NCBI GenBank assembly: GCA_013288545.1
Contig: JABDBR010000005.1
Location: forward strand, 1 to 32,000
Source: Nitrososphaerota archaeon
GTDB lineage: Archaea; Thermoproteota; Nitrososphaeria; Nitrososphaerales; Nitrosopumilaceae
Length of the DNA stretch: 32,000 bases
Direction of reading: 5' to 3'
The notes under the pieces were generated by a model. It was not told where the DNA came from, did no database searches, and saw nothing but the letters and a program-made list of their open reading frames with translations. The position numbers and the translations under genes are program-made. Positions 4,131 through 28,500 of this stretch are shown one piece after another (position 1 is the stretch's first letter; each line of letters opens with the position of its first letter).

Positions 4131-4204
4131 GCTTCGATAGCTCAGCCTGGTAGAGCGTTACCTTGGTAAGGTAAAGGTCGCGGGATCGAATCCCGTTCGA
4201 AGCT
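4131..4204 (+). tRNA. tRNA-Thr (anticodon GGU)
   Basis: GCTTCGA TA GCTC AGCCTGGTA GAGC G TTACC TTGGTAA GGTAA AGGTC GCGGG ATCGAAT CCCGT TCGAAGC T gives a complete 74-nt cloverleaf. The T-loop starts with A instead of U54. Confidence 0.9.
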
Positions 4205-4221
4205 TAATGTTTTCTAAGATA

Positions 4222-5550
4222 CTATTTAGGAATTGAGAAATAAAATGCAGTGCCTTCCCCTTCTTTGCTTTCAAACCAAATTTTTCCACCCAGATTTTCA
4301 ATGATTCCCTTACAAATTACCAACCCAAATCCACTTCCCCCGTATTTTCTCTTAAAAGAGATGTCCACCTGATAGAACTTTTTGAAGACAGAGTCTTTTC
4401 TTTTTTCCAAGATGCCAATACCATTATCTTTTACAGAAAACAAGATAGAATCTCCCTCTTCCTTGGCTATAATCTCAATTTTTCCCCCAGTTGTAGGCAC
4501 GAAATCAACTGCGTTTTGTATCAAATTGTAAAAAACATCGTTGAGCCTAGTTTTGTCACTAGTTATTGATTTTTTTGTACTAGTCAAGTTTACAAACTCT
4601 ATCTTCTTGTCTCCCATCATGAACATGCATGATCCCACCACCTCATTCATGAGACTGTCAACATTGAATTTTTCCTTCTTGAATTCCATTGTATTGCTGT
4701 TGAGTTTTTGCACATCAATGATGTCACGCATTAATTGTTCCAATTTTGCTGCATTGTCATAGATTTCATTTACTGCCTCAGATTGTTTTTCAGTCAAACT
4801 TCCAAGTGAATTATCACTTAGAGTTTTGGCATATTTTTTTATTGGCGCTATAGGGATTTGGCATTCTTTTGCAACCATCATGTAAAATTCTTCCTTTGTG
4901 GCATCCATCTTTTTTAGTTCTTCAAGCTGTATCCTTTGTCTTTCATGATCTCCCAAGACACTGTGTGCTTTGTAAATTTCAGACATGTCCCGTATTGCAG
5001 TGTTGCTTCCGATTAATTTGCCCTTGTCATCGTAGATATTGTTTGCACTGATTAATCCAGGAAAAACTGTTCCATCTTTTCTTTTGAACCATATCTCGAT
5101 ATCCTCTACTCTGCCCGATTTTTTCCATATTTCAAAGGTTTTGTGCATATTATCTATACTTCTTTCCGCAGTATGATCAAACAAAGACTTGCCAAGAACA
5201 TCTTCTTTTGAATAACCAAAATTTTTGACATATGCTTGATTACATTCCAATATTATTCCATTAGTGTTTACTGTTCTTTGTAGAACAGGCGAGTTTTCAT
5301 AGATATTTCTATATTTTATTGGATCAGTTTTGGATTCAGTTCTTTGTGATTCTACCACATACTTTGGGGGTGAAATAGAATTTTGTTTTCTATTGCTCAA
5401 CCATACAATAATGCCTCCACTTGCAGCACAAACTACTCCAAGAAAAAACACTTGGCTTGAGAAAGGTTCATGCACATCTAATCCATAGACAGCAATTAAA
5501 AGTCCAAAAATGCCTATCATCAGCCCCCCAATAGGACTAAAATTAGTCAT
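4222..5550 (-). CDS. membrane-anchored PAS sensor histidine-kinase-like protein (2 TM + PAS + DHp-like + HATPase_c) lacking the H-box histidine
   Basis: Two N-terminal hydrophobic helices are followed by a PAS-like region (NSPVLQRTVNTNGIILECNQAYVKNFGYSKEDVLGKSLFD). The ATPase boxes are N (YNLIQNAVDF), G1 (VKDNGIGI), F (FKKFYQ) and G2 (GGSGFGL). The H-box reads FYMMVAKECQIPIAPI versus the consensus F...vSHELRTPL. Confidence 0.8.
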   Translation of the reverse strand: MTNFSPIGGLMIGIFGLLIAVYGLDVHEPFSSQVFFLGVVCAASGGIIVWLSNRKQNSISPPKYVVESQRTESKTDPIKYRNIYENSPVLQRTVNTNGIILECNQAYVKNFGYSKEDVLGKSLFDHTAERSIDNMHKTFEIWKKSGRVEDIEIWFKRKDGTVFPGLISANNIYDDKGKLIGSNTAIRDMSEIYKAHSVLGDHERQRIQLEELKKMDATKEEFYMMVAKECQIPIAPIKKYAKTLSDNSLGSLTEKQSEAVNEIYDNAAKLEQLMRDIIDVQKLNSNTMEFKKEKFNVDSLMNEVVGSCMFMMGDKKIEFVNLTSTKKSITSDKTRLNDVFYNLIQNAVDFVPTTGGKIEIIAKEEGDSILFSVKDNGIGILEKRKDSVFKKFYQVDISFKRKYGGSGFGLVICKGIIENLGGKIWFESKEGEGTAFYFSIPK

Positions 5551-5720
5551 GCTCCAGAATTTCCTCCATTTGGTTTTCCTATAGAACAGATCATTCTAGG
5601 AATTACAAGCAAAGAGTTTGAATCAATTATTGATTTTGTATATTGTATGAGAGTGTACTGTGAAACTAACAGATTAACTTTTCATGTGTTAGGTTTTCAA
5701 GATAAATTAGAAAAAGACGT

Positions 5721-6275
5721 CTAGTCTATTTCCAACAGAGAAATTATCATATCAAGTAACTCCTGGATTCTTTTCTTTATTCCTTCAAGAACCTGCTTGA
5801 TTTCATTTCCTGAGATCCTTGCTTCATGAATTTGCAAACTTTTAGAGACTTGATCCATGCCATGCTCTGTAATGAATTTGTTGAATTTATCTAGAAACTT
5901 GCTTTCAACAAGTATCTGACTTGCAGTCTCCAGATCCCGGACTGGCTGATATACAGTAGACTTGCCAAATAGGTCCATCATGTCATGAGGTAGACTGATC
6001 ATGTTACCATAAAGATCGTAAAACTTCCAAGCAGTCTTTCTGTATGGTGGGAGGTTTTGATAGAGTTCATCCCTTGTTTTGTATCGTACCAAATAGCCAT
6101 TAATCTCAAGGTCAAGCCATGCATTTCCATCAGATATTCCAATCATTTTGCAGGCATCCTTGCAGGTTTCCAATATGTCATGCAATGATCTTGTCTCTTC
6201 CAAGAGTTCAACACTTACATTTTTGGCCATTTGTAGAATTTTTCCTTTCTCACTTGAATTCAATACAATCAGCAT
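5721..6275 (-). CDS. AbiTii-like domain protein (putative abortive-infection/defence-associated)
   Basis: LHDILETCKDACKMIG...NAWLDLEINGY...LPPYRK matches my recollection of the AbiTii domain core (W..EL.GY......P.YR). This was not computed. TATA-like ATAAGATA lies about 23 nt upstream of ATG 6275. An alternative ATG is at 6230. Confidence 0.5.
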   Translation of the reverse strand: MLIVLNSSEKGKILQMAKNVSVELLEETRSLHDILETCKDACKMIGISDGNAWLDLEINGYLVRYKTRDELYQNLPPYRKTAWKFYDLYGNMISLPHDMMDLFGKSTVYQPVRDLETASQILVESKFLDKFNKFITEHGMDQVSKSLQIHEARISGNEIKQVLEGIKKRIQELLDMIISLLEID

Positions 6276-6330
6276 TGAAAGTATCTTTGATTTTACTCTA
6301 TCTTATTGAGATTGTGGTGTTTTCTGTATT

Positions 6331-7197
6331 CTAGTAGTTTTTAATCAGCAGTTCAGTGTGTCCAGTTCTCTTTTGTGATACAGAATTGATGAATCTATTT
6401 GCGTTTATCTCAATTATTCCATCTGAAAACTCTTTGAAGAGTTCAACTATTTCACCAGATTTAGAATTTGACAGTAATACCTTGACGCCTTTTTTATCAA
6501 GTGCTTTGAACTTGGCATAGAGCCTTTCTTGGTCATTAAAATCAAAATCACTATCAGTATAACTTGTAAAGCTAGCAGTTGAGCTAACTGGCTGATATGG
6601 AGGATCCAAGTAAACAAAATCTCCATGTCCAACACCTTTTAGAGCATCTTCAAAATCCTGGCATTTTATCGAGATGTCTTTTGATTGCAACACCTTACTT
6701 ACTTCAAAGAGATTTTCCTTGTTTACAATGTTTGGGTTTACATATCTTCCAACAGGGACATTGAATTTTCCTTTGCTGTTTACACGGTATAATCCATTAA
6801 AGCATGTCTTATTGAGAAAGATCAATCTTGAAACTTTATCAATTTCATTTTTAGGATTAGTTTCTCGTATCTTGTAATAGTAAGTATCATGGTTTTTGGA
6901 ATAGTTTTCAGCATGGTTTTCAAGCGATGAAACAAGTTCCTTTACGTTATCTCTAATTGTGACATATGACAATACCAGATCAGAATTAAGGTCAGAGATA
7001 TGCCATCTTGTTTTTCTTTCTTTAGATACAAGAGAGAAAAATACCGCACCGCCACCTAGAAACGGTTCAAAATATCTTTCAAATTTACTAGGAATGTGAT
7101 TTGTAATTACAGGTAAGAGTTGTCTTTTACCTCCCGCCCATTTTACAAACGGTTTTGGTGCAACAGAAATTAATTGGTATTCTTGTTTCAATACCAA
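6331..7197 (-). CDS. dam: DNA adenine methyltransferase (Dam/alpha-class N6-MTase)
   Basis: PFVKWAGGKRQLLP is a Dam N-terminal signature. FEPFLGGGAVFF is the FxGxG SAM motif. FVYLDPPYQP is the DPPY catalytic motif. There is no in-frame ATG near the N-terminus, so the start is TTG at 7197. Confidence 0.9.
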   Translation of the reverse strand: MVLKQEYQLISVAPKPFVKWAGGKRQLLPVITNHIPSKFERYFEPFLGGGAVFFSLVSKERKTRWHISDLNSDLVLSYVTIRDNVKELVSSLENHAENYSKNHDTYYYKIRETNPKNEIDKVSRLIFLNKTCFNGLYRVNSKGKFNVPVGRYVNPNIVNKENLFEVSKVLQSKDISIKCQDFEDALKGVGHGDFVYLDPPYQPVSSTASFTSYTDSDFDFNDQERLYAKFKALDKKGVKVLLSNSKSGEIVELFKEFSDGIIEINANRFINSVSQKRTGHTELLIKNY

Positions 7198-7328: not shown

Positions 7329-7979
7329 TTAGTCCCACTTAGACCAGGCTGCCATCCATCTGTATGTCCATGTTGTTAATTTGCAACCCAATGCAGTCAT
7401 TGTTACTGTCAAAACTGCACTAGCGCCTGCACCTAACGCGACGGGACTATCATAGAACTTGCCTACTTGGGGTTCTATTGGAGTCATGTATGGAGGCAAT
7501 GTGGTTCTTGGGTATTTGAAAGCAGTCTCAAGAGGATCATCTATTGTGATTAGATTGATCATGTTGAACAACGACATAGACATTCCACAGAGTACACCGC
7601 CTATTAGGATCAAAGAGTGTTTGTTTCTCTTTGTTGCCCAATATGCCAAATCCATCAGTATTGCCGATGGAATCCACATTGGTACCACGATGAAACTGTA
7701 CGGATATCCTAAGGAGAACCACGCACCTTTTGCAATCCACGTATACACTGTCATTATTAGTGCATAGTATGTTGCTGTTCCTGGAACGCCAGTGAACGTA
7801 AGGTAGTATGCTGCACCGACTGCGAGCATCAATGATTGTGATAGAGTAAATATCACATAAGATGTCCACATCCAGTCAGTATAGAAGATGTAGTCTCCTG
7901 CGTTGATTGTCAACAAGGTCGAGTTGACTGCTACCACTACTATGAATAAGTAGTGAGTACATCGTCTTAGCCAGACCAT
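7329..7979 (-). CDS. amoA: archaeal ammonia monooxygenase subunit A
   Basis: MVWLRRCTHYLFIVVVAVNSTLLTINAGDYIFYTDW...TWTYRWMAAWSKWD is the canonical 216-aa thaumarchaeal AmoA. The track ORF (to 8048) adds 23 codons that contain the promoter. Confidence 0.98.
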   Translation of the reverse strand: MVWLRRCTHYLFIVVVAVNSTLLTINAGDYIFYTDWMWTSYVIFTLSQSLMLAVGAAYYLTFTGVPGTATYYALIMTVYTWIAKGAWFSLGYPYSFIVVPMWIPSAILMDLAYWATKRNKHSLILIGGVLCGMSMSLFNMINLITIDDPLETAFKYPRTTLPPYMTPIEPQVGKFYDSPVALGAGASAVLTVTMTALGCKLTTWTYRWMAAWSKWD

Positions 7980-8000
7980 TGGATTGTATGCAGGAAGTGA

Positions 8001-8016
8001 TGTATATAAAATTTTA
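8001..8016 (-). promoter_or_regulatory. amoA TATA box / promoter (leaderless spacing)
   Basis: The minus strand reads AAAATTTTATATACA. The core TTTTATATA (plus-strand 8003-8011) ends 23 nt before ATG 7979. The same spacing is seen for amt, the Cas4-like gene and PII. Confidence 0.55.
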
Positions 8017-8101
8017 TGACATGCGAGATCAGGCAGAAAATAAACCAAGTTGAGATAACTCTAATGAAGAATAATAAAAGAAAAGATGAAAAGGAATTTT
8101 C

Positions 8102-8464
8102 CTATCCGAAGAAGACACAATCAGTCACAAGTGTTGCGATAGCAACTGCTGCGATCACACCAGCTATAAGACCATTGTATGTCTTTGCTTTTGATGTACC
8201 CTCGGTCACTACTTTGACACAAAATAGGTACCCAATAGCTTCTATGATTGTAAGTACAGTTAACGCAAAGTGTGCGCTTGGCGGTGGATATGCCCATGGA
8301 TAATATACGCATGCAACGGCAACTCCTCCCCATGTTCCTGCCCAGAGTGCAACGAATGCACCAGTGATGAGTCCAACCATATCTTCGACACGTCGGCCTA
8401 TCATCTTACTGACGTCGGAACTGGAAGCTCCGCCACCTGTACCGAATCCTTTTGGTAAGGTCAT
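8102..8464 (-). CDS. amoX: AmoX, small membrane protein of the archaeal amo cluster
   Basis: Encoded between amoA and amoC on the same strand, as in group I.1a AOA. The 120-aa protein has hydrophobic helices (GLITGAFVALWAGTWGGVAVACVYY; LIAGVIAAVAIATLVTDCVFF). Its own TATA-like GATTTAAAAG lies about 20 nt upstream. Confidence 0.85.
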   Translation of the reverse strand: MTLPKGFGTGGGASSSDVSKMIGRRVEDMVGLITGAFVALWAGTWGGVAVACVYYPWAYPPPSAHFALTVLTIIEAIGYLFCVKVVTEGTSKAKTYNGLIAGVIAAVAIATLVTDCVFFG

Positions 8465-8568: not shown

Positions 8569-9132
8569 TTATGGGATTGATCTACTGTACAATTTGCCTT
8601 CTAGAGCCATCTTGTACATTTCTGCAACATATGGGTTCTCACCTGGTGTTTCTGCTCCAAGTTCGACGAGTCGTGCGTATACTCTTACTACATAGGCAAG
8701 TGCGCCCATGAAAGCAACGACGACACCCATGTTAAACATCCAGTGGTTTGGAACTGCGAAGATCTCCTCTACATACCAGAAGTGCCACATCTCATTGACA
8801 CCTATTGTGAACATGGTTGCCAAGTAACCAAGGATGGTCATCTTGAGACCGGTGTTCATTGAGTTGTTTGGACCTCTCAGAATTGGTACCTTTCTGTCAT
8901 AAACAGCTACCATTCCCCATCCTAATGGAAGAGCAATGAAATGGCTGTATAACCACCAGTGTGCTGGTGTGAAGGCACTATCTCTGATTGATGTCTGGTG
9001 TAAAGATCCGTCTACGAAGTTATCGACCTCTACTGATGCAGCGATTGATCCCAATGCGATGATGATAAGCCAGATCTTCTTCAGTCTCTGGATTTCAACT
9101 TCTTTTGGAATTAGTGCTGGCATTTGTGCCAT
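8569..9132 (-). CDS. amoC: archaeal ammonia monooxygenase subunit C
   Basis: MAQMPALIPKEVEIQRLKKIW...HWWLYSHF...EMWHFWYVEEIF... is typical of thaumarchaeal AmoC (187 aa). Confidence 0.97.
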   Translation of the reverse strand: MAQMPALIPKEVEIQRLKKIWLIIIALGSIAASVEVDNFVDGSLHQTSIRDSAFTPAHWWLYSHFIALPLGWGMVAVYDRKVPILRGPNNSMNTGLKMTILGYLATMFTIGVNEMWHFWYVEEIFAVPNHWMFNMGVVVAFMGALAYVVRVYARLVELGAETPGENPYVAEMYKMALEGKLYSRSIP

Positions 9133-9387: not shown

Positions 9388-9954
9388 ATGGTCGATAAGA
9401 AGTTTATTGTAGCTGCAATAGGTGTGATAGTAGCACTTGGAGCAGTTGGACCATCATTAGCACAAATGTTCCAACATGCTGAGGCACATGGTGTCCAGGC
9501 ACAGTTACAGAGTCGTTTCGTAAGAATAGATGGCGAGACATGGTCAAAACAATCTGTTCATACAGGAGACACTTTGACAGTATCTGGTAAATTTGTAAGT
9601 CTTGTAAACAGAGACTTGCGAGGCTGGTACACCGTATATGGTGACTCATCCAACGCTGGTAACAGATGGGAAATTGTAGCAAGAGATCCACCTGGTAACG
9701 TAATTACGATACCAGCAAACGCAGTGGTTCCATACAAGTTAACCATTAAGGCACTTGAACCAGCAGTATATCACATGCATACGCAGCTTAACGTAGCAAG
9801 CATAGGTCCAGGTCTTGGTCCAGGACAAACAGTCGTGGTAACAGGCGATCCAATCGTAAAACCAATCCCATACACAAACGTAGCCTATCAATCGATAGTA
9901 ATTGCAGTGGGATATGTGGTTACTTTCGCAACAAGACCTTGGCAAGTGATTTAA
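9388..9954 (+). CDS. amoB: archaeal ammonia monooxygenase subunit B
   Basis: A signal/TM segment is followed by AHGVQAQLQSRFVRIDGETW... and a C-terminal TM ending RPWQVI, as in short archaeal AmoB (188 aa). The gene is divergent from amoC. Confidence 0.95.
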   Translation: MVDKKFIVAAIGVIVALGAVGPSLAQMFQHAEAHGVQAQLQSRFVRIDGETWSKQSVHTGDTLTVSGKFVSLVNRDLRGWYTVYGDSSNAGNRWEIVARDPPGNVITIPANAVVPYKLTIKALEPAVYHMHTQLNVASIGPGLGPGQTVVVTGDPIVKPIPYTNVAYQSIVIAVGYVVTFATRPWQVI

Positions 9955-10807: not shown

Positions 10808-11494
10808 CTAGTATTCTATTTTGAAATCATCAAAGTATGCACCAGTATCTTTCTTGGTCCACATGCCAACTTCTCCAGACTGGTAATTGTGATCATTTGC
10901 ACGTATGATTAGTTGACCATCAAGAAATGCAGCTATTCCCTGTGAAGATACCAATGCTTGCATTGTATGCCATTCCCCAGGCGTAATTGTGACTGACTTG
11001 TCATAATTGCATATTAGAAATTCAGGCGTATCTTTACATAAAGAGAGCCTGTTTTGAGCAGAGTCTGCCATAAGAACAAAATAATGTTTATCGTCCACAA
11101 ATCTAAGTATCATACCTGCAGACTTTGCATGGTCACCTGATACAATTTTAAAACTCATGGTAACATTTTCAGTATCGACATTAGGTGAGTCTGGAATTAA
11201 TTGCAAATGATAGTCTGCGGTATCATTAATCGATATCTTTTCTAAGACATTTGGCTTTGATGGTGCACTAGAATCTGACTTTATCACCCACAAAGGCTTT
11301 TGATCTGTTGACAATTCAGAAAACCCTTGAGGAACTGTCCCGTTTTGATAGGAATCAAAGTTCCATATCTTGACATGATGATATCCAGAGTTTACTTCCG
11401 CATTATAATATGCAAAAGATATTCCAATTATTGTAATAGCAGCAAAGATTGTAAGACGTTTCTTCTTACTAAATTGCGGTTTTTTTGATGACAA
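10808..11494 (-). CDS. membrane-anchored exoprotein with DUF1080/LamG-like (concanavalin-type) domain
   Basis: An N-terminal TM anchor is followed by ...ILRFVDDKHYFVLMADSAQNRLSL...EWHTMQALVSSQGIAAFLDGQLI...GEVGMWTKKDTGAYFDDFKIEY, the typical C-terminal pattern of DUF1080/3-keto-disaccharide hydrolase-like lectin folds. Confidence 0.6.
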   Translation of the reverse strand: MSSKKPQFSKKKRLTIFAAITIIGISFAYYNAEVNSGYHHVKIWNFDSYQNGTVPQGFSELSTDQKPLWVIKSDSSAPSKPNVLEKISINDTADYHLQLIPDSPNVDTENVTMSFKIVSGDHAKSAGMILRFVDDKHYFVLMADSAQNRLSLCKDTPEFLICNYDKSVTITPGEWHTMQALVSSQGIAAFLDGQLIIRANDHNYQSGEVGMWTKKDTGAYFDDFKIEY

Positions 11495-11893: not shown

Positions 11894-13399
11894 TTACTCT
11901 GCAAATCCAGAGTATGCGTGTTCGCCTACTTGAGATATGTCCAATCCTATTTCTTCTTCTTTTGGTGTAACTCTAACACCACCTGGCCAAATTGCATCTT
12001 GGATTCTCCAAATGATGTAAGTTAGGCCAAATGACCAAGCTGCACCGAATCCTGCCCCCATGCTGTTAATTACAAACTGCATTGGGTTTCCAAAGAAGAG
12101 ACCGTTGTGTGCATATGGATTGATTCTGACTTCACTGAACGCACCTGTAAGCAATGCACCTACAACACCACCCATTCCGTGTACACCCCAAGTATCCAAG
12201 GCATCATCTATTCTTGCCCTGTTCTTGATCAGTACACAGTAGAAGCATACTGTTGCACATGCAAATCCTACTATTATTGATGCCCATGTTCCAATGAAAC
12301 CAGAGGCTGGCGTGATTGCTACAAGTCCAGCAACAGCTCCGTTGACTGCACCGATGGCGCTAGTCTTTCCTGTATGTGCCCAGCTTAAGAACATCCACCA
12401 TATTGCTGCAACCGCAGTTGCCACGTTGGTGTTCTGGAATGCTTGTGTTTCTAGGAAACCAGCAAAGCCTGCACTACCAGGGTTGAAACCAAACCATCCG
12501 AACCAAAGTAATGATGCACCCAAGATTATAAGCGGAATTGAGTGCGGTTCAAATGGTGCCTTACCATATCCTATTCTTCTTCCCAAGAACATTGCGGTAG
12601 CTAAACCAGCAAATCCTGAGGTGATGTGAATGACTGTTCCTCCCGCAAAGTCTTCTGCACCCATCTTGGCTAACCAACCAAGTGCGGTACCTTGACTTCC
12701 AAGAGACCAGTTGGCATGTCCAGCAACATCATAGATGAATGTAGTCCATAATACGATGTGTATCAGGAATGCGCTCATCTTTACCCTGTCAGCATAACCA
12801 GCAATGGCTAGTGACGGAGTGATGGCAGCGAACATGAGCTGGAACATCACATAGGCTAAGTGAGGAATAGTTGGAGCGTATACATCGGCTGGTGCATTGT
12901 GCGATACATTATTCAAGCCTACCCAGTCAAGGTTTCCAATAAATCCAACAGGATCAGCAGATGGACCAAACATTATCGAGTATCCAAAGACAACCCATTG
13001 GACACTGACAATTGCATAGACCATGAATGCCTGTAACATTACGGTTAGAGAGTGCTTTCGTCTTGTAAGACCTCCATACAAGAATCCCACACCACCAGGA
13101 GTCATTATCATGACGAAGACTGCTGCTGCGTACATGAAGGTTGTATCTCCTGTGTCTATACATGGGGCATTACTTCCACCGAATGTTCCGTTACCTGGTG
13201 GAGTCATCGGCTGAGCACAGTGAATCTCATGTGTCTTGCTAGGATCTGCAAGAGCTCCTAACGGACCAAACTGAGCGTGTGCGTCCTGTATTGCCGTGAA
13301 TCCGGATAACCCGACTATTAAGCCTGCGAGCACAAAAACTACCGGCCATTTGTGTTTTGTTACTATCTGCATTGGCGATTTAGAAATTGTCTCCAGCAT
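11894..13399 (-). CDS. amt: ammonium transporter (Amt/MEP family)
   Basis: Family hallmarks are present: DTGDTTFMYAAAVFVMIMTPGG, AEDFAGGTVIHITSGFAGL, LLWFGWFGFNPGS, WGVHGMGGVVGALLTG. The start is set at Met13 of the track ORF (ATG 13399), because the first 12 codons overlap a TATA box 23 nt upstream of that ATG. Confidence 0.93.
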   Translation of the reverse strand: MLETISKSPMQIVTKHKWPVVFVLAGLIVGLSGFTAIQDAHAQFGPLGALADPSKTHEIHCAQPMTPPGNGTFGGSNAPCIDTGDTTFMYAAAVFVMIMTPGGVGFLYGGLTRRKHSLTVMLQAFMVYAIVSVQWVVFGYSIMFGPSADPVGFIGNLDWVGLNNVSHNAPADVYAPTIPHLAYVMFQLMFAAITPSLAIAGYADRVKMSAFLIHIVLWTTFIYDVAGHANWSLGSQGTALGWLAKMGAEDFAGGTVIHITSGFAGLATAMFLGRRIGYGKAPFEPHSIPLIILGASLLWFGWFGFNPGSAGFAGFLETQAFQNTNVATAVAAIWWMFLSWAHTGKTSAIGAVNGAVAGLVAITPASGFIGTWASIIVGFACATVCFYCVLIKNRARIDDALDTWGVHGMGGVVGALLTGAFSEVRINPYAHNGLFFGNPMQFVINSMGAGFGAAWSFGLTYIIWRIQDAIWPGGVRVTPKEEEIGLDISQVGEHAYSGFAE

Positions 13400-13418
13400 C
13401 TTTCGATAGAGATGTTTC

Positions 13419-13467
13419 TCATCTATAAAAGGCATTTTATCCTAAAATGTTTTTTTTATGATATTAT
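13419..13467 (-). promoter_or_regulatory. amt promoter: copy A of a 49-nt repeated promoter/upstream element
   Basis: The plus strand reads TCATCTATAAAAGGCATTTTATCCTAAAATGTTTTTTTTATGATATTAT. On the minus strand TTTTATAG (13423-13430) lies 23 nt from ATG 13399. It is 44/49 identical to 15926-15974. Confidence 0.7.
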
Positions 13468-13562
13468 CGATACATAATATCTGATTTTGTAAAAGTTTAG
13501 TATCATAGAATTAGAAAAAATTCTAAATAAAATTATTATACAACTTACAGACTAGAGCACGC

Positions 13563-13727
13563 ATGACTGAAGCAGGAATAGAAATTTTCATTGCAACAGG
13601 AGTAACTCTTGCAATGACAATAGCAATTTACTTCGGTGAAAGAGCTCACAGGTATAATTTAGCCAAGAAAGGAAAAACTTGGGGAACCTATGGCTTTAGG
13701 TATGAAGGCACCGGTCAACACGCCTAG
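13563..13727 (+). CDS. 54-aa single-TM micro-protein (below ORF-track cutoff)
   Basis: Hand translation gives MTEAGIEIFIATGVTLAMTIAIYFGERAHRYNLAKKGKTWGTYGFRYEGTGQHA*. It has a clean hydrophobic helix then a basic/aromatic tail. No homology support. Confidence 0.35.
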   Translation: MTEAGIEIFIATGVTLAMTIAIYFGERAHRYNLAKKGKTWGTYGFRYEGTGQHA

Positions 13728-13809: not shown

Positions 13810-14301
13810 ATGAGAGAAAATCTGGAAGAAGAAGAACACATCATAGCATCGCTTCCACAGATTTGGGGAATAGCATTAGGGTTAGGAGGATTTTTTCATA
13901 AAAATAAAGAAGGTATTCTTGTTCTTACAAGCAAAAATGTAATTTTTGTTCCACGTTACATTTGGATTACTGCAAAAGAAAAGGAGCGATATTTTGCAGG
14001 TGATAAGGCTGGAATAGAAAAGATGTCAAACTACAATGAATCAGATCTGGATGAAGATTTGACTGAGAATCCAAAATCATGGATAATACATCTAGATTCC
14101 ATAACAGACGTTGGAAGCATAACAACAAGAAAAGTTGATTTCTTGAGGATCACATTTACAGAAAAAGGAAAAGAGAAAAAATATGATTTTGGAATTACCA
14201 AAACTGTAACAAACTACCCATATAGACAGCCTCTAGTTTTCAAAAATTTAGACTGGAGTTTATGGATAGGTTTGATAGTATCAAAACTAAAAAAACCGTA
14301 G
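13810..14301 (+). CDS. hypothetical protein (possibly PH/GRAM-like fold)
   Basis: 163-aa ORF. GILVLTSKNVIFVP...WIIHLDSITDV...FLRITF is reminiscent of bacterial PH-like domains, which is weak evidence. The C-terminus is hydrophobic. Confidence 0.45.
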   Translation: MRENLEEEEHIIASLPQIWGIALGLGGFFHKNKEGILVLTSKNVIFVPRYIWITAKEKERYFAGDKAGIEKMSNYNESDLDEDLTENPKSWIIHLDSITDVGSITTRKVDFLRITFTEKGKEKKYDFGITKTVTNYPYRQPLVFKNLDWSLWIGLIVSKLKKP

Positions 14302-14310
14302 ATTATAGCA

Positions 14311-14781
14311 CTAACTATTACCTTTAGAGCATAGTTTTTCTCGTGCCTGAGAAATAATAAAATCATCATCAATGTCTGTGGTTTTTAAGAATTTCAAATC
14401 AAATACCTTCTTTTTAAATTTGAATATTTCAAGCTCATATTTTTTGTTTTTAGGAGAATAGTTTGCAAGTTGTAATGATGCAGACCCATTGTATTCTTCC
14501 ATAAACTGCTGATAGTGATCTGATATTTTTAGGGATTTTAAAAAGACATTGGATGTCTGCAATATGCGAGATTGGCAATACAGTATGAATTCATAGTTAG
14601 TATCTCCTTCAAAGAATCTCATTTTGATCTCATCGTCTGGCCAGTATTTTATTATCTGATTCCAGGTGTTCACAAGTTTTCTTTTATTATCAAATATCAA
14701 GTAAATAGTAGGACGCACATCAAACACATGATATCCCAGACCTAGAAAATCTTCAAACCAGTCTATTTTAGAATCTACCAT
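14311..14781 (-). CDS. hypothetical protein
   Basis: The ORF in the track starts at TTG 14793. ATG 14781 lies 21 nt after the TATA-like CATTAAATAC. The region is very AT-rich and has no recognisable motifs. Confidence 0.45.
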   Translation of the reverse strand: MVDSKIDWFEDFLGLGYHVFDVRPTIYLIFDNKRKLVNTWNQIIKYWPDDEIKMRFFEGDTNYEFILYCQSRILQTSNVFLKSLKISDHYQQFMEEYNGSASLQLANYSPKNKKYELEIFKFKKKVFDLKFLKTTDIDDDFIISQAREKLCSKGNS

Positions 14782-14852
14782 GTTCAATTCCAAGTATGTA
14801 TTGTATTTAATGATTAGAATGGGAGTAAGAATTTACAATAAGAAAATTTAAG

Positions 14853-15104
14853 ATGTCAAATAGTTCAGAATATTTTGTAATACACATGGGAAATAGAAAG
14901 CGAATCGGCGAGATAATGAAGATGAGTAAAGAAGAATTATACCAATATCTCAGACAGGAAGATGCTGCAATACAATCAACAGATAAAATAGAAATGAAAC
15001 CCTTTGAACATGGCATCAAGATTTTTTACTTCCACAAAGATTCAGAAACTCCCTACAAGACTCGTGTGTATCTAAACCCAGACGAATCAGAATCGTTAAA
15101 ATAA
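14853..15104 (+). CDS. hypothetical protein
   Basis: 83-aa ORF with no recognisable motifs. The start is uncertain. Confidence 0.35.
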   Translation: MSNSSEYFVIHMGNRKRIGEIMKMSKEELYQYLRQEDAAIQSTDKIEMKPFEHGIKIFYFHKDSETPYKTRVYLNPDESESLK

Positions 15105-15156: not shown

Positions 15157-15906
15157 TTATAGGAAGGGTTTTGCTTTGAGTTCACGCCACTTGCCACGAG
15201 CCCAGAATCCCCATTTCTGTTTGTCTTCATTTGCATAGTAACATTTCTCATTGTGAGGACATTCCATGCATTTTTCAGACGGTTCGATTGCTGGAGCAAT
15301 GTTGTTTGTCAGCAAGGTATTGAGAATTTTAGCTCTACGTTTTGTTTCGTGTAAAAGCTTCTCACTCTTTGGCACATTAAATTCCATTTCGTTTCCTTCT
15401 CTATCGAAGTAGACAATCACTCCTTCAGGTTTGTCAAACATAAACAGATAGGAGTTCAGGTGTATGAAATCTGCCGGATACGGCATTTCAGGTAATTTTT
15501 CTGAACTTCTAAAGAGCATCACTACTTCATCTTCAACTCTGTCAGCTCTACCGACAATCTTTACGTTAGAACCTGCATCAAGTTGACCGTCAATTGGTTT
15601 TTCCATGATGCTAAATGCGCTCTTTTGCATTATCTTTGACACCATCTGCTTGTGATTGCTTTCAGATGGATCCTTTCGATCAAGGTATGCATTTCTTAAA
15701 CATCCGCTTACCTCATCTACAGTGATCTTACCTTCGTCAGCTACTTGTGGATTAATTGCTGCAAAGACTTGCTCAATTACATCGTAAACATCTACTCGTG
15801 GTGGTGCATCAGTTGCTGCACGATAGTTTTCAATTCCTTCCTTAATTTTGTCTTGAACTTTTCCAACGATTTTTGCTTTTTTGTAGCTAGCTTTGGATTC
15901 TGTCAT
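15157..15906 (-). CDS. Cas4/RecB-like PD-(D/E)xK-superfamily protein with 4-Cys Fe-S cluster signature (orphan, no CRISPR)
   Basis: The N-terminal Cys lies in VSGCLRNAYLDRK (Cas4-type C.R..Y). The C-terminus has CMECPHNEKC (C-x2-C-x5-C). The core reads IVGRADRV...VVMLFRSSEK...FIHLNSYLFMF...GVIVYF. The expected ExK and QxxxY motifs are not clearly conserved by eye. Confidence 0.65.
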   Translation of the reverse strand: MTESKASYKKAKIVGKVQDKIKEGIENYRAATDAPPRVDVYDVIEQVFAAINPQVADEGKITVDEVSGCLRNAYLDRKDPSESNHKQMVSKIMQKSAFSIMEKPIDGQLDAGSNVKIVGRADRVEDEVVMLFRSSEKLPEMPYPADFIHLNSYLFMFDKPEGVIVYFDREGNEMEFNVPKSEKLLHETKRRAKILNTLLTNNIAPAIEPSEKCMECPHNEKCYYANEDKQKWGFWARGKWRELKAKPFL

Positions 15907-15925
15907 TCTTTTGAAGAGTGGGATT

Positions 15926-15974
15926 TCATCTATAAAAGGTATTTTATCCTAAAACAATGTTTTTATGATATTAT
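15926..15974 (-). promoter_or_regulatory. promoter of the Cas4-like gene: copy B of the 49-nt repeated promoter/upstream element
   Basis: The plus strand reads TCATCTATAAAAGGTATTTTATCCTAAAACAATGTTTTTATGATATTAT. On the minus strand TTTTATAG (15930-15937) lies 23 nt from ATG 15906, the same offset as copy A. Confidence 0.7.
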
Positions 15975-16037: not shown

Positions 16038-16385
16038 ATGACCCTTAAAAAAATAGAGGCAATATTTCCAAAAGAAAAATTGGATGCGGTCTTCAATGCC
16101 CTAACAGAACTTGACATAAGTGGATTTACGTACATGGATGTCAAGGGCAGAGGTGCTAGACCAAGAGAAATGGTTTCATCAGGCAGAGGAGGACGTATTG
16201 AAGCTACACACAATGTGAATGCACTAGTCTATGTAGTTGTCACTGAGAGTCAGTTATCTAAAGTAATAGATGCAATAACTACTCATGCAGGTACAGGGGC
16301 AGCAGGAGAAGGAAAGATCTTCATCTACAACCTTGATGATGCGGTAGACATAGGAACCAAAAAACGCGGCGAATCCTCACTCTAA
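16038..16385 (+). CDS. nitrogen regulatory protein P-II family
   Basis: KKIEAIFPKEKLDAVFNAL...GFTYMDVKGRG...TGAAGEGKIFIYNLDDAVDIGT follows the GlnB/GlnK fold pattern (compare E. coli KKIDAIIKPFKLDDV...TEVKGFG...TGKIGDGKIFVFDV). TATA TTTAATAAAA (16005-16014) lies 23 nt upstream. Confidence 0.85.
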   Translation: MTLKKIEAIFPKEKLDAVFNALTELDISGFTYMDVKGRGARPREMVSSGRGGRIEATHNVNALVYVVVTESQLSKVIDAITTHAGTGAAGEGKIFIYNLDDAVDIGTKKRGESSL

Positions 16386-17112: not shown

Positions 17113-17394
17113 TTACCAGTATTTACCGTTGTCTGGTATCAGACCAATGCCTTCTCTTTCAAAGTGCTTGTTGAGTTCTGCGACCCATCTTTCTCTTGTG
17201 TCGCCACCAAGACCGTGCACTCTGAGCCAGAATGCAATTACTCCGAGAAGGAATACTGTGAACATGATGGTTGCGAATATGTAGACCATCACATCATAGA
17301 ATAGCGGGTCATAGTTTGGACCTATTTGACCTGCAAAGTTTGACAGCATACCTACGAGCATAGTGAATATCGTGCTCATCATAATTCCAAGCAA
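17113..17394 (-). CDS. small 2-TM membrane protein, unknown function
   Basis: 93-aa protein with two long hydrophobic helices (STIFTMLVGMLSNFAG; VMVYIFATIMFTVFLLGVIAFWL) and a charged C-terminal tail. Confidence 0.5.
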   Translation of the reverse strand: MLGIMMSTIFTMLVGMLSNFAGQIGPNYDPLFYDVMVYIFATIMFTVFLLGVIAFWLRVHGLGGDTRERWVAELNKHFEREGIGLIPDNGKYW

Positions 17395-17477: not shown

Positions 17478-17777
17478 CTAAGCTCTCTTTGCTTTTTCCG
17501 CTTGCTTTGCTCTTACAACAAAAGCAATGAAGATTCCACCGAATATTCCACCTGAGATGATCGATGCACCGAGTACACCGCTTGCATCAAGATATGGAGT
17601 ACCTGAACCTGCGTGCGGATTATTTTGTACTGCCTGTACCTTAGCTCTTGCTAGTGCCAATTCCTGTTCGAGCCCAAGACCACCACCTGGTGTGTACTGA
17701 GCTGCAGCAAATGGAGCAAATGTAGAGGCTACAAATAGAGCCAACAGTGCAGTTCCAACAATTATTGGTGTTTTCAT
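17478..17777 (-). CDS. small secreted/tail-anchored protein (signal peptide + C-terminal TM), unknown function
   Basis: MKTPIIVGTALLALFVASTFAPFAAAQ is a signal peptide. An Ala/Gly-rich segment follows, then the C-terminal TM GGIFGGIFIAFVV and a basic tail. Confidence 0.5.
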   Translation of the reverse strand: MKTPIIVGTALLALFVASTFAPFAAAQYTPGGGLGLEQELALARAKVQAVQNNPHAGSGTPYLDASGVLGASIISGGIFGGIFIAFVVRAKQAEKAKRA

Positions 17778-17883: not shown

Positions 17884-18333
17884 GTGGGTCGATTACATTC
17901 ACATAGACATGGCAAGTCACATTCGACAAGACCAATCACTCCTAGTACACCTACATGGGTAAAACAGAGTCCAGCTGAGATTGAAGAATTGGTTGTCAAG
18001 TATGCAAAAGAGGGCCTTCCTCCAAGCAAGATTGGAATAAAATTGCGTGATCAGTATGCAATACCAATTACAAGACAAATTGTCAAAAAATCAATTACAG
18101 AGATCCTCGAACAGAAAGGAATCAAAACAGAAATGCCTGAAGACCTGAATAACTTGGTAACCAAGGCACTTGGTCTACAGAAACATTTGAAGGAGCACAA
18201 GTCTGATAAAAGAAATGTCAGATCGCTTGAACTCTTAGAGGCAAAAGTTCACAGATTATCTTCATATTACAAGAAGATTGGCACGATAGCCAAAACTTGG
18301 AAATATAAGGCAGTTATTGCTCAACTCGAGTAA
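17884..18333 (+). CDS. rps15: 30S ribosomal protein S15 (uS15; S15P/S13e)
   Basis: The N-terminus (M)GRLHSHRHGKSHSTRP and the C-terminal half LEAKVHRLSSYYKK are typical of archaeal uS15. The start is GTG. Confidence 0.9.
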   Translation: MGRLHSHRHGKSHSTRPITPSTPTWVKQSPAEIEELVVKYAKEGLPPSKIGIKLRDQYAIPITRQIVKKSITEILEQKGIKTEMPEDLNNLVTKALGLQKHLKEHKSDKRNVRSLELLEAKVHRLSSYYKKIGTIAKTWKYKAVIAQLE

Positions 18334-19751
18334 TGGCAAAGTTAGATCAAGCATTATCTTACTTTCATGACAGGGTTTCTGATTGTATCAAAACAGGAAA
18401 GAATATTTCAGTAATTACTCATCTTGATTGTGACGGTATAACTTCTGGAAGTATTGTTACAAAATCTTTGATCAGATCAGGTGCAAAATGTACCGTACGA
18501 ACTGTCAATGAATTCAGCCAGGGCGTTATTGAAAAAATGAAAAATGATTCAAGACAGTTTCACATAATCACAGATCTTGGCGGAGGATTTGCAAAGGACA
18601 TTGATAATGCATTAGATGATGATTGGATAGTAGTTGATCATCATCAAATACCACAAGAAGAATTTGATAACCAGAAAGTGATCAATGCTTGGAAATACGA
18701 TGTTGATGGCGGAAAAGATGTTTCTGCCGGAGGCATGGCATATCTTGTTTCAAAAGCGCTCCACAAAGAAAATACAGATTTAGCATGGATTGCAGTCGTA
18801 GCAGCACTGGGTGATCGTCAGGATCAAGGTGAAAAGAAATCATTTACAGGAATAAATTTGGAAATTGCATCTGCGGCAAAGAAGAACAATCAAGTTGAAA
18901 TTGATTTGGACATTTTGCTCGTTGGAAGAGAGACAAGACCACTCCCAGATGCACTTGCATTTACCTCACAGCCCTTCATTGAGGGTTTAACATGGAATCG
19001 TGACGCGTGTCTTTCACTTTTAAATTCCTCAGGAATAAAATTAAAGGATGGTAGTAGGTGGCGTGTTCCGGCAGAACTAACAGAGGATGAAAAACGGACA
19101 CTTTTACAGACAATATCAAAGTACATTTCGACTAAAAATGCAAGCGACATACTAGATGAGCTTGTAGGATACACATACACATTATCTGGTGAGGATAAGA
19201 GAAGTTTTCTTCGAGATGCAAGAGAATTTTCTACAATGCTAAACTCTTGCGGTAGAATCCGCAAGGCTGGAGTGGGAATAGCAATTTGCATGGGAGACAG
19301 GACCAAGATGTTACAAGAGGGTGAAAACATACTGGTAGAATATAGAACATTCTTGAGAACTTACATGAATACACTCTCCAGTGAAAGATGGAGAATAACC
19401 GATAATGGCCACTACTTGATGGTAAATGGCGAAGGTCTTGTTCCAGAAAATATGACAGGCGCAGTATCATCACTTCTTGGAGGATCACAAAAAAACACAG
19501 GAAAGATAATCATACTTAGAACTAATGGCGAAGAAGGAACAATAAAGTTCTCTTCACGTAAATCTACTGGATGTAAATCTGAAGTAAATTTGGGATTGTT
19601 AATGCGAGAATGTGCTGCAAAAGTGTCTGGAGTAGGCGGAGGACATGCAGCAGCTGCGGGAGCAAGAATTACAAAAGACAAATTAGATGAATTCCTAGAT
19701 TACCTGGAACAAAATGTCTCTAGAATGCAAAGTTCAAGTGTTTCTGAGTAA
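18333..19751 (+). CDS. DHH-family RecJ-like nuclease (archaeal GAN/Cdc45-RecJ homologue)
   Basis: DHH motifs are present: ITHLDCDGITSG, DLGGG, VVDHHQ. The C-terminus has a DHHA1-like GGGHAAAAG. The start overlaps the S15 stop (TAATG). Confidence 0.8.
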   Translation: MAKLDQALSYFHDRVSDCIKTGKNISVITHLDCDGITSGSIVTKSLIRSGAKCTVRTVNEFSQGVIEKMKNDSRQFHIITDLGGGFAKDIDNALDDDWIVVDHHQIPQEEFDNQKVINAWKYDVDGGKDVSAGGMAYLVSKALHKENTDLAWIAVVAALGDRQDQGEKKSFTGINLEIASAAKKNNQVEIDLDILLVGRETRPLPDALAFTSQPFIEGLTWNRDACLSLLNSSGIKLKDGSRWRVPAELTEDEKRTLLQTISKYISTKNASDILDELVGYTYTLSGEDKRSFLRDAREFSTMLNSCGRIRKAGVGIAICMGDRTKMLQEGENILVEYRTFLRTYMNTLSSERWRITDNGHYLMVNGEGLVPENMTGAVSSLLGGSQKNTGKIIILRTNGEEGTIKFSSRKSTGCKSEVNLGLLMRECAAKVSGVGGGHAAAAGARITKDKLDEFLDYLEQNVSRMQSSSVSE

Positions 19752-26869: not shown

Positions 26870-27535
26870 TTAGATCTTGATGTTTGGATTTTCTTTTTTG
26901 AGTTTTTCCCAGTCTGCAAGAAAATTTTTCAGACCAACATCCGTTAGCGGATGTTTTAGCATTTTTCCAAGTACATCAGGAGGTAATGTTACCACATCAG
27001 CTCCAATTTTTGCAGCTTCTACTACATGCATAGGATGTCTTACACTTGCAACAAGAATTTGTGTACTAAATTTATAATTTTCAAAGACTTGATGCATTTC
27101 TCTGATAAGGCTCATTCCGTCTTGTCCATTATCATCAAGTCTTCCAATAAATGGACTCACATATTTTGCACCAGCTTTTGCTGCCAATATTGCCTGATTT
27201 ACAGAAAAGCAAAGTGTAACATTTACGGGAATATTTTCTGATGTCAATATCTTACAAGCCTTGAGACCTTCAGGTGTAAGAGGACATTTTACAACCACGT
27301 TGTTACCATATTTTCGCAGTCTTCGACCTTCCTCTAACATTCCATTAGTTTCCAAGCTCAATACTTCCAGGCTAACATCACCTTTGATAATTTTAACAAT
27401 TTCCTCCATGACTTTTTGAGGATCTCCTCCTTCCTTTGCCATCAGAGATGGATTCGTAGTGATTCCATCTACAAGACCCATATCGTTATACATCTTTATT
27501 GCTGAAATATTAGCAGTATCCAGAAATATCTTCAT
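26870..27535 (-). CDS. tal: transaldolase / fructose-6-phosphate aldolase (short TalC/FSA subfamily)
   Basis: MKIFLDTANISAIK...GITTNPSL...VVVKCPLT (Schiff-base Lys context)...SPFIGRLDD. Confidence 0.9.
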   Translation of the reverse strand: MKIFLDTANISAIKMYNDMGLVDGITTNPSLMAKEGGDPQKVMEEIVKIIKGDVSLEVLSLETNGMLEEGRRLRKYGNNVVVKCPLTPEGLKACKILTSENIPVNVTLCFSVNQAILAAKAGAKYVSPFIGRLDDNGQDGMSLIREMHQVFENYKFSTQILVASVRHPMHVVEAAKIGADVVTLPPDVLGKMLKHPLTDVGLKNFLADWEKLKKENPNIKI

Positions 27536-28500
27536 CTGGTTTGACTCCGAATAGCCTTAACGGCATTAGATATATGAATTGATGTAATACCATGTTTTTC
27601 AAGCAAGAGTGGAATCTCACCGTCTCTTGCAGATTCACCGAACTGATCTTTTGCTCCTATTCTTTTTACAGGAACCGGATATGTCTCAGAGACTGTCTCG
27701 GCAACTGCAGAACCAAGTCCTGCCATTACATTATGTTCTTCACAAGTGACTATTCCTCCAGTTTCACGTGCTGCTTTTTCTAAAAGTTCTGAATCAATAG
27801 GTTTGATGGAAAACATATCAATTACTCTACATGAAATTCCTTCTTGTTTCAAAAAGTCTGCAGCTTCAAGAGCAATACTGACAGTTATTCCACATGCAAC
27901 AATTGTGCAGTCAGAACCATCGCGCAATACAATTCCTTTACCCATTTTGAATTCTTGTTCTTTTGAGTGAATTACAGGTGTTTTTGATCTAGCCAACCTC
28001 ATGTAACATGGACCATAGATTTGTGCGAAAAGTCGAGTTAGTTTTTCTACTGTCACAGTATCAGATGGGACAAATACTTTGACGTTTGGAATAACTCTCA
28101 TTATTGCAATATCTTCTAGTTGTTGATGAGAACCCCCATCAGGACCCACACTAAGACCACCATGTGATACAACCATCTTCACATTCAATCCATTCTTTCC
28201 ATTTCTTGAAGGATACGCTATTGCATTACGTATTTGGTCTACGCATCTGCCAGGAAGAAATGCTGCATAAGTACTTGCAAATGGAATCTTACCCTCATTT
28301 GCAAGACCTGCCGCTATGGTGACCAAGTTGGCTTCAGCAATGCCAACGTTAAAGAACCTATTTGGAAATTTTTTTCCAAAAGGTTTTGTCTTTAATGAAT
28401 CTGTAGTATCTGCACCTACTACAACAATGTTAGGATTCTCCTCCCCTAATTTGATCAGAGTTTCACCATACACAGTTCTCATATCGGCAAATTCTGTCAT
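27532..28500 (-). CDS. tkt: transketolase, C-terminal (pyrimidine-binding + C-terminal domain) subunit
   Basis: R..YGETL..LG..NP.IVV.GADT, FFNVGIAEANLV and GGSHQQLEDIAIMR are typical of the split archaeal transketolase B subunit. There is a 4-nt overlap with both neighbours. Confidence 0.9.
   Translation of the reverse strand: MTEFADMRTVYGETLIKLGEENPNIVVVGADTTDSLKTKPFGKKFPNRFFNVGIAEANLVTIAAGLANEGKIPFASTYAAFLPGRCVDQIRNAIAYPSRNGKNGLNVKMVVSHGGLSVGPDGGSHQQLEDIAIMRVIPNVKVFVPSDTVTVEKLTRLFAQIYGPCYMRLARSKTPVIHSKEQEFKMGKGIVLRDGSDCTIVACGITVSIALEAADFLKQEGISCRVIDMFSIKPIDSELLEKAARETGGIVTCEEHNVMAGLGSAVAETVSETYPVPVKRIGAKDQFGESARDGEIPLLLEKHGITSIHISNAVKAIRSQTR

Follow-up and report, generated by a model that had tools for sequence, protein, structure and literature searches.

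The dead-nuclease domain of RecC is an inactivated derivative of the RecB-like nucleases. Another, derived from Cas4, is the TTV1 nucleocapsid protein TP1 (PMC5704561), and given this precedent inactivated Cas4-like proteins do not in themselves constitute a new category. A phylogenomic survey of Cas4, in which Thaumarchaeota are not mentioned, states that all Cas4 proteins keep their catalytic motifs (PMC5704561). In thaumarchaea, a 'stand-alone Cas4' beside the atp operon has been read as pointing to possible virus-mediated recombination, with the loss of its active site left unremarked (Wang et al., 2019; PMC6863869). Here we describe cas4L (15157-15906, - strand), an open reading frame (ORF) of 249 amino acids (aa) with an ATG start in a 32,000-nucleotide (nt) stretch of DNA from a Nitrososphaerota archaeon (contig JABDBR010000005.1 of assembly GCA_013288545.1; the whole stretch is called the window below). 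The closest of the loci compared with it (L001; LN890280.1, Candidatus Nitrosotalea devanaterra) encodes a protein 99% identical to the cas4L of the window, which thus matches this organism. We propose that cas4L would be a Cas4-derived protein of the PD-(D/E)XK fold, which has kept the four-cysteine iron-sulfur (Fe-S) module, lost catalysis and become part of a conserved set with the ammonium-transporter gene amt, a lectin-like gene, the pair sm54-orf163, orf160 and orf83. To judge from sequence comparisons, it probably takes part in ammonium uptake or its control, and not in CRISPR or DNA repair. Our search of the literature found no description of this long family, of its active-site loss, of its linkage to amt or of the upstream box described below.

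Fold, cysteines and active site of cas4L

A preliminary description of the window, made from the sequence alone, had recognized in cas4L the strand and helix order of RecB-type nucleases, and profiles and structure prediction bear this out. Searched singly, the window protein falls below the curated cut-offs of both Cas4 models (Pfam PF01930, E=0.058 and 13.9 bits against a cut-off of 22.7; TIGR00372, E=1.7e-4 and 21.5 bits against 65). At the level of the family, 26 of 27 members match PF01930 (best E=6e-6) and 23 of 27 match PDDEXK_1 (best E=1e-8), while the family profile recovers the Cas4 protein SSO0001 (PDB 4ic1) with E=2e-5. The same structure is the top Foldseek match of the AlphaFold2 (AF2) model (E=1e-6; template-modeling score 0.37-0.44), followed by other RecB/lambda-exonuclease-type nucleases; the model has a mean confidence score (pLDDT) of 59, with a core near 80 and a C-terminal tail below 50. 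Matches to the Cas4 model of PADLOC (E=4e-8) and to phrog_1706 of PHROGs (E=2.5e-9) point the same way, and by sequence and model alike we assign cas4L with high confidence to the Cas4 family of the RecB-like PD-(D/E)XK fold.

The Cas4-type four-cysteine signature noted in the preliminary description is likewise present, with C69 lying in S-G-C-L-R-N-A-Y (the C.R..Y context) and the remaining three cysteines forming C213-x2-C216-x5-C222. All four are invariant in 164 distinct orthologues, which represent all four orders of ammonia-oxidizing archaea (AOA) and on which the active-site counts below are also based, and we infer that they bind an Fe-S cluster. In its RecB-like fold, its lone N-terminal cysteine followed by C-x2-C-x5-C, its G-R-A-D motif, the helix that corresponds to the Q..Y helix and the length of its core, cas4L resembles Cas4 as typified by SSO0001. 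It departs from Cas4 in having a hydrophobic residue in place of the catalytic glutamate, an arginine mostly in place of the lysine, scores below the curated cut-offs, and about 35 N-terminal and 25 C-terminal extra residues that are conserved. It also differs in its surroundings, which lack cas1, cas2 and a CRISPR array and instead comprise an ammonium-transporter neighborhood.

The active site was compared by hidden Markov model (HMM) alignment with SSO0001, whose catalytic residues we take to be D99, E113 and K115. Here, the G-R-A-D of cas4L (with D122) stands opposite the G-R-A-D of SSO0001, L131-F132-R133 opposite E-I-K, and H149-L-N-S-Y153 opposite Q-L-Q-I-Y, in agreement with the preliminary reading of the ExK motif as F-R-S (residues 132-134). 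The D..ExK motif is accordingly not intact, and at the position of the catalytic glutamate every one of the 164 orthologues has I, V, M, L or A. The lysine position holds R in 127, K in 36 and S in one, and the D122 position D in 123 and E in 41. The preliminary reading of QxxxY as H-L-N-S-Y stands for the window but not for the family, in which residue 149 is Q in 138 of 164 and residue 153 is Y in 146; the histidine is a minority state (16/164) peculiar to Nitrosotalea sequences. Position 94, which the family-profile alignment places opposite H62 of SSO0001 (presumably a metal ligand), is occupied by E, Q, K or D, being Q in the window and in 58 of 164 orthologues, and therefore offers no conserved replacement carboxylate. 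Outside the family, D..[E/D]xK is kept in 103 of the 120 nearest representatives at 50% identity. One of these outside sequences (P0132, with ADAIVDDSVVEFK) combines an intact D..[E/D]xK with a hairpin of the same length as that of cas4L, and the existence of such sequences validates the register of the alignment.

Across 27 diverse members, all of which have lost the glutamate, 57 columns remain invariant. The family accordingly presents the features of an inactivated PD-(D/E)XK derivative, namely a fold that is kept, a catalytic carboxylate lost throughout the clade, and purifying selection otherwise. Because the glutamate is lost, and in most members the lysine too, cas4L is most likely no longer a DNA-cutting enzyme; on this sequence evidence, the absence of nuclease activity seems to us moderately probable. 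Like TP1 and the RecC domain, it would keep a nuclease fold without the catalytic residues and have taken on a new non-catalytic role; unlike them, it is a cellular gene found across AOA orders, keeps the four Fe-S cysteines and is tied to a transporter regulon.

The alternative that cas4L is a still-active solo Cas4-type nuclease, with a non-canonical or compensated site and a role in repair, recombination or defense, and that its adjacency to amt is inherited and meaningless, has to be weighed at this point. It would account for the retained fold and Fe-S module, for the acidic residue at 122, the basic residue at the lysine position and the mostly kept Q149 and Y153, as well as for the nearly invariant E125 and D126/E127 close by. 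It also accords with the public annotation of the protein as 'CRISPR-associated exonuclease Cas4' and with the presence of a RecJ-like DHH protein (18333-19751) 2.4 kb away. Yet the uniformly hydrophobic glutamate position and the want of a carboxylate at position 94 speak against it. Moreover, by strand alternation in the alignment with P0132, E125 would lie on the face of the hairpin opposite to D122. Together with evidence from the paralogues, the neighborhood and the promoter given below, this makes an active nuclease, in our judgment, an unlikely explanation. Our results also correct this widespread automatic label, by which such genes have already come to be taken as signs of CRISPR or viral activity.

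The two extensions of the long form stand apart from the core. Residues 1-35 form a basic helix (net charge +3) and residues 225-249 a W/R-rich tail (KQKWGFWARGKWRELK), which has a net charge of +4 and three tryptophans and is nearly invariant in the family. Both are candidates for the seat of a new function such as nucleic-acid, membrane or partner binding.

Conserved gene neighborhood and spread of the family

In the window, cas4L is the last of a run of seven genes. These comprise a lectin-like (ConA/LamG-like) protein (10808-11494, -), amt (11894-13399, -; Pfam PF00909, E=4e-106), the 54-aa single-pass membrane protein sm54 (13563-13727, +), which heads the sm54-orf163 unit, orf163 (13810-14301, +), orf160 (14311-14793, -), orf83 (14886-15104, +; 72 aa from the conserved start) and cas4L itself. 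We examined 78 loci (746 kb) from GTDB species representatives and found that cas4L stays with the other six genes through at least six gene orders and orientations. These arrangements span Nitrosotalea and other Nitrosopumilaceae, Nitrososphaera, Nitrosopolaris, Nitrosomirales and Nitrosocaldus/HR04, so that the set is neighboring in Nitrosocaldales, Nitrososphaerales, Nitrosomirales and Nitrosopumilales. Three units move together, namely cas4L with orf83, sm54-orf163 with orf160, and amt with the lectin-like gene; amt and the lectin-like gene adjoin, or nearly so, in almost every locus that has both. In every lineage sampled orf83 adjoins cas4L or nearly does, in some with an extra gap of about 0.8 kb. 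Sequence of 5 kb or more flanks cas4L on each side in 40 loci, 39 of which include amt; as exceptions, two loci (L060 and L077) have no amt in the 4.5-6 kb upstream of cas4L.

The opposite flank (PII, orf172, orf93, orf99, S15 and DHH) is kept within Nitrosopumilales only and serves as an internal control. This bears on the preliminary observation that cas4L faces PII: the divergent GlnB/K-like PII gene (16038-16385, +) is indeed there in the window, but this adjacency does not extend beyond Nitrosopumilales. It also bears on the active-nuclease alternative, given that the neighborhood with amt has outlived at least six rearrangements and the DHH flank has not. Array searches and domain scans agreed with the preliminary description in finding no CRISPR array, cas1, cas2 or helicase in the window (the scans covering ORFs of at least 80 aa), and no CRISPR-like array was found in the 78 related loci either, in which the conserved neighbors of cas4L are amt and the orphan genes. 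We estimate from these comparisons that a functional tie of cas4L to ammonium transport is somewhat more probable than mere proximity.

Most of the conserved neighbors are themselves AOA-specific. No Pfam match was obtained for sm54, orf163, orf160 or orf83 other than a weak PH-like match for orf163 (E=0.006); orf160 has no family match, and the profiles of orf83, orf160 and orf163 found none in the PDB. None of the five conserved neighbors searched against PADLOC and PHROGs gave a match, which argues against their being partners in a defense system. The AF2 model of orf83 (pLDDT 79) has a helix-helix-3-strand-helix layout and no fold match (E above 0.5), its underlying alignment being shallow, with Nitrosotalea sequences as the sole yield of the homologue search.

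Such partners lend some color to the idea that cas4L serves at the membrane as a structural or adaptor protein devoid of catalysis, docked on the cytoplasmic side of Amt, of PII or of the small membrane proteins, and that its Fe-S cluster is solely a structural staple. The cluster in AddB, Dna2 and Cas4 is regarded as structural, the W/R-rich tail and the basic N-terminal helix could provide the attachment, and the gene set includes a transporter, the single-pass sm54 and the weakly PH-like orf163. Against this, the tail is modeled at low confidence and the adjacency to PII is confined to one order. We consider an adaptor of this kind improbable, to about the same degree as an active nuclease.

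The preliminary description had called cas4L an orphan, which the database searches contradict, for they yielded about 120 clusters at 90% identity whose members are 46-95% identical to the window protein, all of the named ones being thaumarchaeal. An HMM search of 1.84 billion representatives found a single full-length cluster at 50% identity for the long form, represented by a Nitrosocaldus sequence (P0120), after which the scores fall from 377 to 184 bits. Among the loci, identity declines from 99% in the closest Nitrosotalea to 43-53% in Nitrosocaldus-like and HR04 loci, and by this pattern of sequence divergence cas4L is an old, vertically inherited gene of ammonia-oxidizing archaea.

The other suggestion of the preliminary description, that an inserted cassette brought cas4L in as its cargo, does not survive these comparisons, and neither does an origin as a solo Cas4 from a virus or mobile genetic element (MGE). 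Archaeal viruses and MGEs do often carry solo Cas4 genes (PMC5704561). In Nitrosotalea, too, the block separates amoABCX from the probable amoYZ, which lie one or two genes apart in other Nitrosopumilaceae (PMC10030591), and a Dam-type methyltransferase and an AbiTii gene occur nearby (5721-7197). Nonetheless, the same seven genes, from the lectin-like gene to cas4L, are neighbors in all four AOA orders and cas4L diverges as just described; no integrase, repeats or strong GC deviation were found at the block, and the PHROGs matches are to generic Cas4 models. Since the neighborhood has been kept through rearrangements in all the orders sampled, we exclude an inserted cassette, and cargo of any mobile origin is to our mind highly improbable.

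The sequences that fall between the long form and the intact outsiders are short Cas4-like paralogues (204-219 aa), of which at least one comes from Nitrososphaeraceae. Their four cysteines are present and their ExK positions read KFE, VFR, NIV, YIK, RMH or NFH, a variety such as one would expect after selection on catalysis has ceased and that further disfavors an active nuclease in cas4L. They thus share with cas4L a thaumarchaeal origin, the four cysteines and a degenerate ExK. They differ from it in lacking the N- and C-terminal extensions and the upstream box, and in a link to amt that is not kept elsewhere, as they otherwise adjoin TFB, hemerythrin or TruD genes. The stand-alone Cas4 of the earlier report (PMC6863869) is most likely one of these paralogues (P0121-P0128; loci L083 and L158), as judged by its position at the atp genes and the transporter labeled 'HA-Amt' there. 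In L083, the transporter gene next to the atp genes, to which that label corresponds (PMC6863869), is only 44% identical to the amt of the window.

Several features of the short-paralogue loci (L079, 8001-8660; L083, 6001-6657; L158, 2750-3397; L085; L087) may be recorded here. The paralogue adjoins a TFB gene in Nitrososphaeraceae; in some Nitrosopumilales, a second amt paralogue and atpC are found 2.4 kb away from it. In L079, L083, L087 and L158, but not in L085, the gene that comes after it is convergent and encodes about 185-195 aa. In L079, a paralogue of orf163 (5293-5760; hhalign probability 99.2%, 32% identity) is found 2.2 kb from the short Cas4-like gene, which raises the possibility that each of the two paralogous sets pairs a Cas4-like gene with an orf163-like one.

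The upstream element shared by cas4L, amt and sm54

The preliminary description had also held that the promoter of cas4L copies that of amt, and this proved to be the case. The 60 nt at 15915-15974 before cas4L are 83% identical to the 60 nt at 13408-13467 before amt, both intervals being given on the + strand. The window has exactly two copies of a 22-mer over the BRE (transcription-factor-B recognition element) and TATA region, the expected number being 0.00. The TATA box TTTTATAG is situated 23 nt before the ATG of both genes (15930-15937 for cas4L and 13423-13430 for amt, each read on the - strand), from which we suppose the cas4L mRNA to be leaderless or nearly so. This spacing for amt presumes a start at 13399, which is probably the correct one on sequence grounds, as the start of the longest ORF at 13435 would overlap amt's own TATA box; the start at 13399 also gives a signal-peptide-like N-terminus. 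Upstream of the TATA box is a second conserved element. Before cas4L it reads TATCATAAAA (15961-15970, -) and starts 33 nt ahead of the TATA box, or 64 nt ahead of the ATG; before amt it occupies 13454-13463 (read on the - strand). A third copy, TATCATAGAA (13501-13510, +), stands 62 nt upstream of the start of sm54.

As the 10-mer TATCA[CT]A[AG]AA, this box occurs 165 times in the 746 kb of related loci, and in 141 cases it is found 44-77 nt ahead of cas4L, amt or sm54, the distances peaking sharply at 62-65 nt. It precedes cas4L in 56 of 71 loci, amt in 43 of 53 and sm54 in 42 of 53; the remaining occurrences comprise two before orf93, none before the other 11 genes scored, and 22 elsewhere. 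Box and TATA are 33 nt apart in Nitrosopumilales and in Nitrososphaerales alike, although the sequence of the spacer differs, and it is this contrast of a conserved box with a variable spacer that carries the argument for a shared element, given that the counts themselves come from related genomes. In L060 and L077, in which cas4L has no linkage to amt, the box is still there, and it is found before a second amt paralogue as well (L158). It is absent from the promoters of amoA, amoB and amoC in the window and from the upstream region of the short Cas4-like paralogue. We considered whether the box might be the TATA element of a divergent gene, and ruled this out, as it persists where the gene upstream of cas4L is co-directional (L057, L059, L061).

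In one locus (L049), about 85 nt recur unchanged in inverted orientation at the divergent amt (4160-5629, -) and cas4L (6001-6735, +); the box, the TATA box and the first six codons (MSSGV..) all fall within this stretch. Such identity suggests recent copying of the promoter or gene conversion. In a scan of metagenome contigs with the box followed by 20-24 nt and CTTTTATA, most of the matches listed were chance ones in AT-rich bacterial DNA; those of AOA type were cas4L, amt and one second amt paralogue, and among the matches listed there was no new member of the regulon. The transcription of cas4L thus appears, from this conserved sequence element, to be tied to that of amt, and the two genes are probably co-regulated. 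The linkage to amt and the upstream box both hold across AOA orders, which upholds the nitrogen-physiology setting that the preliminary description had proposed for cas4L, and a promoter box common to the amt genes is a further point against an active repair or defense nuclease.

Possible roles of cas4L and other features of the window

Ammonia-oxidizing archaea drive much of global nitrification. To our knowledge, they are without the regulators known from other archaea, and how they control ammonium uptake relative to ammonia oxidation is essentially unknown. Against this background, we envisage cas4L as a cytoplasmic Fe-S protein that would act inside the ammonium-uptake module, possibly as a sensor or regulator sensitive to redox state or nitric oxide (NO), which would couple ammonium transport to the state of ammonia oxidation. 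Going by conservation of sequence and synteny, we see the case for some regulatory or sensor role in the amt module as evenly poised; a sensor or regulator mechanism in the specific sense is a more tentative proposition. Several observations weigh against this picture. The acidic and Q..Y residues that persist around the altered site, as detailed above, may signify a non-canonical active site instead of a lost one. The median isoelectric point of the family is 6.0, that is, near-neutral, and cas4L has no recognizable DNA-binding or signaling output domain. The loci are phylogenetically related, and hence counts of loci and boxes are not counts of independent events, and the clustering and the common box speak to co-location and probable co-regulation, not to common function. 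Finally, the names Nitrosopumilus, Nitrosarchaeum and Nitrosocosmicus were not seen among about 121 clusters, few of whose matches carried organism names, on account of which cas4L may not be universal in AOA. Nitrosocosmicus is reported to be devoid of the high-affinity Amt, and deep-marine clades of the low-affinity one.

A bolder version is that cas4L itself recognizes the TATCATAAAA box before the amt genes, sm54 and its own gene, which would make it a nuclease fold exapted to an Fe-S transcription factor; we rate this a distinctly long shot. Such a factor would be sensitive to NO or redox state, with a logic analogous to that of WhiB or NsrR, whereby ammonium uptake would be set by ammonia-oxidation activity. 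With the WhiB-like (Wbl) [4Fe-4S] factors, cas4L has in common the C-x2-C-x5-C spacing and, after it, a W/G-rich turn with a basic tail, and the 'WhiB-like transcriptional regulator' model phrog_1821 of PHROGs gives a weak match (E=0.005) to residues 210-244 (15157-15250 of the window), with 16 of 27 members matching at E<=0.1. The rest of cas4L, unlike a WhiB factor, is a nuclease fold. No Pfam Whib match was found at E<=1, nor any WhiB structure in the PDB at E<=10 with the C-terminal profile, and we therefore treat the resemblance as a lead only. If cas4L were the transcription factor of the box, ammonia-oxidizing archaea would have in it their first identified nitrogen or energy regulator. 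If the link to amt is functional in any form, cas4L would be a clear exaptation of the Cas4 fold outside defense and repair and would open a way into the study of nitrogen regulation in AOA. Three testable objects result, namely a conserved cis-element before two amt paralogues, sm54 and cas4L, a conserved set of AOA-only orphan genes at amt, and a strongly conserved, putative Fe-S protein of nuclease descent that has most likely lost catalysis.

The window as a whole is a core ammonia-oxidation neighborhood, with amoA (7329-8048, -), amoX (8102-8464, -), amoC (8569-9132, -) and amoB (9388-9954, +) beside the cas4L block and a cupredoxin-like gene between amoB and the lectin-like gene. Counting genes from amoA (NDEV_1777), the amt of the window corresponds to NDEV_1784, which has been named amt2 and reported as the most highly transcribed amt (PMC4836417); cas4L would be NDEV_1789. 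Eleven genes past amoB are two small, highly conserved membrane proteins of 93 aa (17113-17394, -; 83-100% identical across loci) and 99 aa (17478-17777, -; 61-96%), which by position and size are probably amoY and amoZ. These have been reported 11-12 genes away from amoABCX in Nitrosotalea (PMC10030591), in agreement with which the whole amt-cas4L block of Nitrosotalea lies between amoABCX and the probable amoYZ.

On the other side of the amo genes, an AbiTii-domain protein (5721-6275, -) and a D12-class N6-adenine DNA methyltransferase (6331-7197, -) stand directly beside amoA, with a PAS histidine kinase (4222-5550) near the pair, and this may represent a small defense or restriction-modification insertion at the amo cluster. 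Towards the far end of the window, a pentose-phosphate cluster includes a 557-aa ORF (28497-30170, -) with an unusual fusion of transketolase N-terminal and ribulose-phosphate 3-epimerase domains, followed by the C-terminal half of transketolase (27532-28500) and then by transaldolase (26870-27535).

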